From: a virus
Lineage: Duplodnaviria; Heunggongvirae; Uroviricota; Caudoviricetes
Direction: 5' to 3' (one strand)
Virus record (IMG/VR): IMGVR_UViG_2531839239_000007
Length of the DNA: 18,442 nt
The position numbers were made by a program. Below, one piece after another: positions 3,001-6,000 of this stretch (position 1 is its first letter; each line of letters starts with the position of its first letter).

Positions 3001-6000
3001 GCGTAAGGCTGCGAGAGGTGAATAATGTCGCCATCATTACGCAAGGCTGTTGCTGCTGCTATTGGTGGTGGGGCTGCTGCCATAGCGTCTGTGCTCATCA
3101 CTGGTCCGAGTGGTGACGATGGCCTGGAAGGTGTCAGCTACATACCATACGAAGATATCGTTGGCGTATGGACTGTATGTCACGGACACACCGGAAAAGA
3201 CATCATTCCCGGTAAAACGTATACCGAAGCAGAATGCAAAGCCCTCCTGAATAAAGACCTTGCCACGGTCGCCAGACAAATTAACCCGTACATCAAAGTC
3301 GATATACCGGAAACAACGCGCGGCGCTCTTTACTCGTTCGTTTACAACGTGGGCGCTGGTAATTTCAGAACATCGACGCTTCTTCGCAAAATAAACCAGG
3401 GTGATATCAAAGGCGCATGTGATCAGCTACGGCGCTGGACATACGCTGGCGGTAAGCAATGGAAAGGGCTGATGACTCGCCGCGAGATTGAGCGTGAAGT
3501 CTGTTTGTGGGGGCAACAATGAGCAGAGTAACCGCGATTATCTCCGCTCTGGTTATCTGCATCATCGTCTGCCAGTCATGGGCGGTTAATCATTACCGTG
3601 ATAACGCCATCGCCTATAAAGAACAGCGTGATAAAAAAGTCAGTGAGCTGAAGCAGGCGACCGCCACCATTACTGACATGCAGCAGCGCCAGCGTGCTGC
3701 TGATGCACTCGATGCTAAATACACGAAGGAGTTAGCTGATGCGAAAGCTAAAAATGATGCTCTTCGGCGCAAGCTTGATAATGGTGGTCGGGTGTTCGTC
3801 AAAGGAAAATGCCCTGTGCCATCCTCAGACGAAACCTCCAGCGCCTCCGGCATGGGCAATGATGCCACCGTCGAACTCTCTCCAGTTGCTGGACGAAACG
3901 TTCTCGGTATCCGGGACGGAATTATCCGCGACCAAACAGCACTGAGAACGCTTCAGGAATACATCAGGACGCAATGCCTTCGATGATAGCGATAATTTTA
4001 CTCATCATCCTTCACATCTGGCTCTGTAGACAGGGTGGTGCTCACTTCTGGAGTGAATCATGGTTAAACATCTCATTGCTGATGCTTGATATTGAGCATC
4101 TGGCGCGCGGTAAGGGGCTGCGTTGAGATAAGAGCCAGTCATTAAAAATACCTGGATTTAGCCTCGCATTCGCGGGGCTTTTTTATTGCCATTACAAAAG
4201 CCACTCCCTACAGAGTGGCTTTGATAATGGCTTATACCCTACACGGGATAACTTAACTGATATCCCTTTTAACGGATAAAGGTATTCAAGCCTGACACAT
4301 CATGCGCTGTATCGTCGCTGTATTCCCGCATTAACCATGACCGTAGCCCGACGGGGAACTCCTTCTGCGCGAGTGTGCGGGAATAATCAAAAACGATGCA
4401 CACCGGGTTTTTACCGCGCTAATGATTCGCGGGTTTGTCCCTCATGCTCGCCAGTCCTGTGCGGGGGTGGAAGAAACAGGACACTCACACAGATTCTTGT
4501 GGGTCGATGCTATTCCTTTCTGGATTATCCCGATGCCATTCATGCAAGGGCTGTATCAGACGTTCGTCATGGCTTTCAGGCTGACGGCTCCTCCCGGTGG
4601 GGTGGCCTGCCACGGGGCGGGAGCGTCGCGGAAAAAGGCTAGTTTTTGCATTTTTATCGGCCACCATCATCTTTGCATCTTATTGATTATTAATGGTTAT
4701 TTGTTTTTTGTATGTCGAATTGAGTGTTTTTTGTTCGACATCGAACGCGTTTTCTTAAAGTTGTTCGCACGATGCATGTTTAAAGCTCTCCGGAGGAAAT
4801 ATGGATCATGAGTTGAAAAACCTGGTGCTGAATATTAATCAACTGGCGGCTTTATCTGGTCTGCACCGCCAGACTGTCGTGGCAAGACTGAAAAACATTC
4901 GTCCCGCTGGTGGACATGACAAACTCAAGCTATACCGGTTGACCGATATTCTGACTGAATTTATGGGGTTACCACCGCCGGTTGCTGAGGGCGAAATGGA
5001 TCCACATGAACGCAAAGCCTGGTATCAGTCTGAACGTGAGCGTCTTAAGTTCGAACAGGAAACGGCACAACTCATTCCGGCCAGTGATGTCAGACGGGAG
5101 TTTGCCATCTGGGCAAAAGCGGTCGTGCAGGTGCTGGAGACATTACCGGATATTCTGGAACGTGACTGTGGTCTGCAGCCTGCCGCTGTGAGCCGTGTTC
5201 AGTCCATTATTGATGATCTGCGCGATCAGATAGCCCTGCGGGTGACCGAAGCAGGTGCGGATGATGAGGAGGAATTACAGCAGGAGGAGTAATGCTGAAT
5301 CAGGAAACCGCAAAGGCAGCACGAACCGATTCAGGTTATATCCTTCGCGCACCGAGACGAATGCGGGTTGCTGATGCCGTTGCTCAGTATATGCGGGTGC
5401 CCATGGGGGCCGGGAACTCAGTCCCGTGGGATCCGCTGGTGGCACCGTATGTTATTGAGCCGATGAACTGCCTGGCCTCGCGTGAATACGACGCAGTGAT
5501 ATTTGTTGGCCCGGCACGAACCGGCAAGACTATCGGCCTGATTGACGGCTGGGTGATTTACAACGTGATTTGCGATCCTGCGGATATGCTGATCATTCAG
5601 ATGACGGAGGAAAAAGCCCGCGAACACTCCAAAAAACGACTCGCCAGAACGTTTCGCGTCAGCCCGGAAGTGGTCAGTCGCCTGAGTCCGAACAAAAATG
5701 ACAACAACGTTTATGACAGAACATTCCTTGCTGGCAACTACCTGAAAATCGGCTGGCCGTCAGTCAATATCATGTCCTCATCAGATTATAAATGCGTGGC
5801 GCTGACGGATTATGACCGTTTTCCGGAAGATATTGATGGCGAGGGGGATGCCTTCTCTCTTGCCTCAAAACGTACCACCACATTTATGTCCAGTGGTATG
5901 ACGCTGGTGGAGAGTTCCCCCGGCAGGGATGTGAAGGATGTGAAATGGCGACGGACTTCACCGCATGAGGCTCCACCAACCACGGGGATACTGTCGCTCT

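Follow-up and report, generated by a model that had tools for sequence, protein, structure and literature searches.

The window analysed here is a whole stretch of 18,442 nucleotides, IMG/VR virus record IMGVR_UViG_2531839239_000007 (Caudoviricetes), and it is the late region of a lambdoid E. coli (pro)phage. The subject of this text is the DNA just ahead of its terminase genes. A sequence-only reading had proposed a cosB-like array of short repeats there, between a candidate cosN and the start of the small terminase gene. Positions 4586-4745 are probably a lambda-type cos site, consisting of cosQ, cosN, a conserved spacer and a cosB with the elements R3, an IHF site, an inverted R2 and R1. 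The direct basis is the homology of cosQ, cosN and spacer to those of lambda, a fixed spacing, an IHF consensus and the concerted evolution of the three R sites. The site would be of an ordinary kind with a new specificity, and it appears to belong to a terminase family, DUF1441, whose cosB seems undescribed.

The features are as follows. All distances from the cohesive end take position 4615 as +1.

4586..4592, plus strand: cosQ-like heptamer GGCTCCT, which aligns with lambda cosQ (ACGGGTCCTTTCCGGTG vs ACGGCTCCTCCCGGTG)
4615..4626: predicted cosN, 12-nt 5' cohesive end GGGCGGGAGCGT between flanks ACG and CGCGG, placed by alignment with lambda
4627..4660, plus strand: conserved cosN-proximal block CGCGGAAAAAGGCTAGTTTTTGCATTTTTATCGG, holding a first TTTGCAT
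4661..4669, plus strand: R3-like site CCACCATCA, +47 to +55
4676..4688, minus strand: IHF-like site, plus strand CATCTTATTGATT, i.e. YAANNNNTTGATW, the complement of WATCAANNNNTTR, with one mismatch
4689..4709: A/T-rich spacer on the flank where IHF sites have an A/T tract, read directly from the sequence
4710..4718, minus strand: R2-like site, inverted, plus strand GTATGTCGA, reverse complement TCGACATAC, +96 to +104
4735..4743, plus strand: R1-like site TCGACATCG, +121 to +129
4757..4784, plus strand: conserved 28-bp element AAAGTTGTTCGCACGATGCATGTTTAAA, holding TTGTTCGCAC; not a canonical R site
4801..5292, plus strand: gene for the small terminase subunit (TerS), 163 aa, Pfam DUF1441 (PF07278, E = 4.6e-44)
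5292..7394, plus strand: gene for the large terminase subunit (TerL), 700 aa, lambda gpA type (GpA_ATPase, PF05876, E = 9e-72; GpA_nuclease, PF20454, E = 2e-85)

TerS scores 150.3 bits against PF07278, where the gathering threshold is 35.1, and covers profile positions 1-146 of 147. It is labelled small terminase in many phage records. The gpA-type TerL gene adjoins the DUF1441 TerS gene.

For comparison, loci with DUF1441 homologues were taken from bacterial contigs (one genome per species), viral contigs and phage records. These gave 267 upstream regions, 156 of them unique. In 141 the cosN flank could be recognised and R2 anchored, by regular expression, in the MAFFT-aligned loci. The 141 loci contain 47 distinct site triplets. 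Their alignment consists of conserved blocks with variable spacers in between, a pattern that spans Enterobacterales and beyond. The blocks are CGCGGAAAAAGGCTAGTTTTTGCATTTTTATCGG (4627-4660), CAxCAxCAx (4661-4671), one centred on TTGAT, (A/G)TGTCGA, and finally TGTTTTTTGTTC(G/A)NCA(T/C).

Predicted cosQ and cosN and the adjoining block

The predicted cohesive end and its flanks, ACG/GGGCGGGAGCGT/CGCGG at 4612-4631, align with ACG/GGGCGGCGACCT/CGCGG of lambda. In this sequence-level test 8 of the 12 bases are the same, the left half is the same, and so are both flanks. The record of phage cdtI opens with the exact 12-mer GGGCGGGAGCGT, and that of Hafnia phage yong2 directly after it. In phage LLS a 12-nt 5' cohesive end is annotated at the homologous place. 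The records of mEp460, Ayreon and mEp043 have arbitrary starts, a few bases upstream of the small-terminase gene. For virion DNA of PhiR40_1 and mEp460 the alignment predicts a 12-nt 5' overhang of GGGCGGGAGCG(T/G).

Two records differ around cosN. That of mEp460_4F5 (LR595868; L001 1-30, L004 600-628) was opened 5 nt upstream of the predicted end, at CCACG/GGGCGG..., and misses 3 nt of the right half of cosN (GGAGCG---CGG) relative to mEp460 and the window. The assembly appears to be at fault here, at the physical ends. Gifsy-2 (L131, ~440-470) has 14 nt (GGTGGCTTCGGGCT) between CCACG and CGCGG, not 12, with little identity to the lambda end; this is either a different cosN or an altered prophage copy.

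The cosQ heptamer of lambda, PhiR40_1 and most relatives is GGGTCCT. The window has C for G at 4588, a change common to 12 loci, where PhiR40_1 has G. Many DUF1441 phages carry a third form, AGGTACT. Natural variation in cosQ has been reported as not apparent (PMC4669245). Across relatives the heptamer keeps its distance from cosN.

The cosN-proximal block, 4627-4660, has a mean majority-base frequency of 0.82 over 47 lineages, and is conserved more strongly than the R sites. Lambda +13 to +45 can be aligned with it, and it is kept even in cdtI, whose TerS is only 42% identical, which means that the block is not tied to one TerS specificity. The first TTTGCAT, lying within this block, therefore more likely belongs to the context of cosN and the large subunit than to a specificity site, as judged from the alignment.

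PhiR40_1 has a hypothetical CDS of 101 aa annotated across cosQ and cosN (window 4337-4642; L002 3209-3514), with no Pfam match. It would be split in virion DNA, and is probably not a gene.

R sites and IHF site of the predicted cosB

The R3-like site starts at +47 or +49 in 141/141 loci. It is followed at +62/64 by the IHF-like site. At the aligned position the IHF consensus is present with at most one mismatch in 127/141 loci and perfectly in 73/141, given a background of 0.05% for 13-mers of the same sequences. Variation falls on the N positions and spares those that the consensus specifies. The spacer at 4689-4709 is poorly conserved in sequence, but its length is kept: R2 always lies between +95 and +99. 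Within the TG..GA core of R2 the T, G and A are invariant, and its orientation is opposite to that of R3 and R1. R1, with an invariant TC and a nearly invariant CA, keeps to +120 to +124 in every locus, however far away the ATG is. The common core of the three sites is TC(G/A)NCA(T/C).

The start codon itself ranges from +128 to +230 across the 141 loci (+187 for the TerS ATG of the window), and in short-form relatives R1 overlaps it. Given that the start codon is variable while the spacing of the elements from cosN is fixed, the array is positioned by cosN, and not by the gene or its expression.

A 10-nt direct repeat, TGTTTTTTGT, is found at 4702-4711 and 4725-4734. Its copies end right before the R2 core (ATGTCGA) and the R1 core (TCGACAT). 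Direct repeats of at least 10 nt arise in ~5% of shuffles, here and below meaning 2000 dinucleotide-preserving shuffles of 4640-4790, a region of 34% G+C.

The three sites change together. At position 7 of the 9-mer, 82 loci have T throughout the three sites, 48 have C throughout and 11 are mixed, so that 130/141 loci have either CAT three times or CAC three times. PhiR40_1 falls in the CAT class and mEp460 in the CAC class. Within a genome the sites are identical at 18.11 of 27 positions. Permuting sites between genomes lowers this to 16.48 (sd 0.20), and none of the 20000 permutations attains the real value. In several lineages position 7 and positions 3-4 of R2 shift together with R3 or R1. 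One locus has TCGTCAC in R3 and R2 (L011), two have TCAACAT (or TTAACAT) in R2 and R1 (L116, L118), and in three R2 has been converted to the R3 sequence (L019, L271, L255). The sites of Gifsy-2 are TCAGCACTG, TCGACACTG and TCGACACTG. Relatives from Halomonas, Marinobacter and Pseudoalteromonas, with a TerS that is ~40% identical, have CCACCACC with a tandem inverted GGTGGTGA, or CAGCAGCACC with an inverted GGTGCCGAA, as identified by eye.

On the protein side, TerS residue 13 (N vs S) and residue 21 (L vs V) follow the CAT vs CAC class. As a sequence correlation this is suggestive. The predicted core of the recognition helix, HRQT, is invariant across CAT-class and CAC-class phages.

The distant DUF1441 loci (L030-L045, from Marinobacter, Halomonas, Salinicola and Pseudoalteromonas) were also looked at ~100-250 nt upstream of the TerS match. 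They keep cosQ as GGGTCCT, have a cosN of the form CCACGGGG...CGCGG, and have an R3-like CCACCACC or CAGCAGCACC. Instead of one inverted and one direct copy, two or three tandem inverted copies follow (GGTGGTGA or GGTGCCGAA).

The sequence-only reading had arrived at a lambda-like cosB layout, with R sites of both orientations flanking an IHF site, and at R sequences unlike those of lambda that point to a different specificity. Both ideas are strongly supported by the 141 loci, through the fixed cosN spacing, the IHF consensus and the concerted change. The composition of the array needs revision. What had been described as TGTCGAA inverted relative to TTCGACA are indeed the cores of R2 and R1, conserved and co-varying, and the actual repeat is 8 bp, ATGTCGAA (4712-4719) and TTCGACAT (4734-4741). 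TTCGACA was correctly placed at 4734-4740, but TGTCGAA lies at 4713-4719 instead of 4712-4718. The true R3 and the IHF site had both been missed.

The reading had also listed two copies of TTTGCAT, at 4645-4651 and 4672-4678, and a related motif TTGTTCGCAC at 4761-4770. All three are where they were said to be. As R sites the TTTGCAT pair is rejected: the first copy is in the block shared with lambda and cdtI, and the second is not conserved, at 43% identity to the window across 47 lineages. Direct repeats of at least 7 nt turn up in 89% of shuffles, and since they are this common by chance, the pair is meaningless on its own. The motif TTGTTCGCAC was likewise dropped as a candidate for a fourth R site: the invariant CA core is missing in register, the motif shows no CAT/CAC covariation with the R sites, and only the long-form E. 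coli lineages conserve it.

Within-sequence statistics have little to add. Inverted repeats of at least 8 bp with a loop of at most 40 nt arise in 4.4% of shuffles. Over the 18.4-kb window TCGACAT is found 4 times where 2.7 are expected, and TTTGCAT 5 times where 4.0 are expected, so neither is enriched. Because these statistics are weak, the case rests on the comparative evidence.

The 28-bp element at 4757-4784 is a separate matter. Across 13 distinct long-form lineages, drawn from both specificity classes, its identity is 97%; it is conserved above its flanks and above the R sites, and absent from the short forms and Gifsy-2. Inside it lies a mini-ORF, ATG CAT GTT TAA (4772-4783), 17 nt before the terminase start.

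Known cos systems and the small terminase

The arrangement R3-I1-R2-R1 has been described by the Feiss laboratory for lambda, 21, phi80, Gifsy-1 and Monarch, and a simple cosB for N15 (PMC4669245, PMC9026076). In lambda R3 is at bp 50-65, and in N15 at bp 48-60 (PMC9026076).

With lambda the window shares a good deal. The cosQ heptamer, the 12-nt cosN with its ACG and CGCGG flanks and the spacer from +13 to +45 are homologous, and R3 is at bp 50-65 in lambda and at about +47 to +55 here. Lambda has its IHF site between R3 and the inverted R2, in the same orientation as in the window, with the best I1 matches at +74 and +79. A third, direct R site comes after R2 in both. The small-terminase gene starts at +191 in lambda and at +187 in the window, and both have a gpA-type large subunit. 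The R sites themselves differ: those of lambda are CGTTTCC(T)TTCT, 16 bp, while those of the window are TC(G/A)NCA(T/C), ~9-10 bp. The small subunit of lambda is gpNu1, to which the DUF1441 protein of the window has no detectable sequence similarity. The 28-bp element is an addition that lambda does not have.

Phages 21, phi80, Gifsy-1 and Monarch have the same tripartite layout with an IHF site, and lineage-specific R sequences, as in the window. There, packaging specificity shifts as R sites and winged-helix domain evolve together. Unlike in the window, their small subunits are of the Nu1 family; that of Gifsy-1 is annotated as a homologue of Nu1 / phage 21 gp1. Because of this, the published statements on cosB do not extend to the DUF1441 group. 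N15 has R3 at the same distance from the cohesive end, and a lambda-like end that is changed in its right half, as in the window. Its cosB, however, is a simple one with a single critical R3 and a remote rR2, whereas the window has a conserved R2, R1 and IHF site.

A cosB description for the DUF1441 group (Gifsy-2, Fels-1, mEp460, mEp213, cdtI, VT1-Sakai, LLS) was not found in the literature, coverage of which was incomplete. Searches for literature on DUF1441, on cosB of Gifsy-2 or the mEp phages, and on the 12-mers returned nothing relevant.

For the fold of TerS there is a structural model. The AlphaFold (AF2) model of residues 1-62 has a pLDDT of 83 and a beta-alpha-alpha-beta-beta-alpha topology, that of a winged helix. 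Best Foldseek matches of this model are the MerR-type winged helices BldC, RacA and MtaN, and the entries 7lwr, 7lw0 and 6hn7 chain B. Of these, 7lwr and 7lw0 are entries on viral DNA-packaging motor assembly (phage TerS DNA-binding domains), and 6hn7 is a PICI redirecting-protein entry. Over residues 9-55 the matches have a TM of 0.5-0.6, an rmsd of 1.8-2.9 A and a Foldseek probability of 0.85-0.99, but an E-value of at least 0.09. The whole protein gives weak MerR-family matches only; the domain-only model was slightly more informative. A profile search of PDB sequences with TerS gave nothing significant. In hhalign, TerS residues 9-51 pair with gpNu1 residues 2-47, with recognition helix and wing in register, at a probability of only 5.5%.

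If the site works as that of lambda does, IHF would bend the DNA between R3 and R2. This bend would let the winged-helix domains of a DUF1441 TerS dimer dock on R3 and R2. Anchored by the docked dimer, the gpA-type large subunit would then cut cosN with a 12-nt stagger, nicking the top strand at 4614/4615 and the bottom strand at 4626/4627. Packaging would proceed rightwards from there, into the terminase genes.

Alternatives, setting and meaning

Several points weigh against a lambda-type cos site recognised by this TerS. BLASTP gives no alignment of TerS with lambda gpNu1 at E <=100, the hhalign probability is as low as noted above, and the Foldseek E-values are not significant. R1 is at +121 in the window, and near +155 in lambda. 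The core-to-core spacing of R3 and R2 is 49 bp versus 61 bp. The register of R3 is ambiguous due to the CAxCAxCAx periodicity. Both the cosQ and the IHF site of the window carry one mismatch. Shared ancestry inflates the covariation counts, and only five or six independent events can be named. The cohesive ends of LLS and mEp213 were inferred rather than measured, which for LLS is stated as such (PMC12315714). Binding, footprint or end-mapping data were not found for this or any other DUF1441 phage. Finally, this copy of cos may lie within a defective prophage, given its frameshifted portal gene, described below.

The R2-R1 repeat might alternatively be a hairpin and not a pair of protein sites. 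It could form from ATGTCGAA...TTCGACAT (4712-4741), or more tightly as GTTCGA-CA-TCGAAC (4733-4746) with the T's that follow, and regulate terminase expression as an RNA structure, a terminator or a DNA cruciform. The 8-bp inverted repeat is rare among shuffles, as noted, there is one terminator-like match at 4732-4747, and pair 5-35 of the hairpin model covaries, as AU in 20 sequences and GC in 17. But the two pairs at its centre fail to form in 26 and 22 of 39 lineages, and the longest contiguous paired run is at most 5 in 31/47 lineages. The only strongly covarying pair is position 7, and the same T/C change happens in R3, outside any hairpin. The spacing of the array is held to cosN and not to the start codon, and the terminator-like match is at chance level (1 vs 0.8 expected) and absent in mEp460-type relatives. 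With base pairing not maintained across relatives and a terminator match within chance, the hairpin or terminator reading was rejected as quite improbable. A sigma-70 promoter was sought in 4400-4900, and none was found.

It is less credible still that the array arose by chance in low-complexity AT-rich sequence, or that overlapping coding frames (ORFs 4337-4642 and 4422-4811) cause the conservation. It is true that 7-nt direct repeats are frequent in shuffles, that the motifs are not enriched over the whole window, and that PhiR40_1 has a hypothetical CDS annotated across the region. Against this stand the block-wise conservation over Enterobacterales and beyond with variable spacers, and the IHF site, where consensus positions are kept and N positions are free to vary. 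The coding explanation was rejected because of the length differences between lineages: these are 10 and ~57 nt (start codon at +187 versus +197 and +131), which would shift or break long frames.

Another option is that the conserved sites serve a different protein, such as a host nucleoid protein or gpA directly, and that TerS recognises something else, for example the block at 4627-4660. In its favour, that block is the more conserved one, and HRQT is invariant over both classes. The block, however, is shared with lambda, where TerS is unrelated, and with the diverged cdtI, which suits a role with gpA and cosN and not one in specificity. The R sites do differ between TerS lineages, as would be expected of a specificity element, and winged-helix residues 13 and 21 track the CAT/CAC class. 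The layout also matches that shown experimentally for gpNu1. A different protein is therefore considered unlikely, and a cosB for the DUF1441 TerS is the preferred reading of the array.

The surroundings of the site are those of a mosaic lambdoid phage. Upstream are two lysis genes:

3025-3522: lysozyme gene
3507-3986: Rz

Further upstream, 160-2097 encodes a 645-aa protein with DUF1737, SASA (sialate O-acetylesterase-like) and DUF6645 domains. Over 4300-5300 the nearest phages are PhiR40_1, PhiR55_1 and PhiR47_1, at 98% identity; mEp460 and its relatives match over the terminase and cos sequences only, at 85-88%. A mosaic joint falls within 4300-5300. In the lambda-like phages 2B8, 4A7 and Lambda_4C10, a region ~120 bp short of the right end matches positions 4300-4483 at 96-98% identity; for Stx phages the figure is 88%. 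Beyond ~4484, matches are restricted to mEp460- and PhiR40-type phages. Because 4300-4483 is common to lambda-like phages near their right ends, the packaging module begins near 4484.

Downstream, the portal gene (lambda family, 7603-9112) carries a frameshift with respect to PhiR40_1: the run GAATTTTTTCC (8625-8635) has one T too many, at 8628. The frame at 7603-8631 encodes portal residues 1-343, and the following one, at 8630-9112, residues 343-503. Either the prophage is defective or the extra T is a homopolymer sequencing error. An ORF of 739 aa at 8865-11084 combines a ClpP-type protease domain and a capsid domain (Phage_capsid_4) in one protein. The paper on LLS describes the same fusion of protease and coat for Gifsy-2 (PMC12315714).

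Taken more broadly, and quite tentatively, the DUF1441 terminases could be a separate and widespread packaging-specificity family, from Gifsy-2, Fels-1, mEp460, mEp213, cdtI and VT1-Sakai to relatives in Halomonas and Pseudoalteromonas. In it, the R3-IHF-R2-R1 arrangement of lambda would have been re-created, or retained, with an unrelated-looking small subunit. At least one CAT/CAC switch would have changed one base pair in all three sites, together with residues 13 and 21. Terminase binding at cosB may in addition be coupled to terminase expression, which could follow from R1 lying over the start codon in short forms and from the 28-bp element with its mini-ORF in long forms.

No new kind of mechanism is revealed by this. 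What it does provide is a testable map of packaging signals for a large set of temperate phages and prophages of enterobacteria, including the toxin-carrying cdtI and VT1-Sakai, and Gifsy-2 and Fels-1 of Salmonella. The map predicts genome ends, and thereby the correct orientation of records. It also helps in judging if a prophage can be packaged; this copy for example has a variant cosQ and the frameshifted portal gene. The CAT/CAC difference is a one-base marker of packaging-specificity class, and the family as a whole offers a natural series for the co-evolution of a DNA-binding protein with its three sites.

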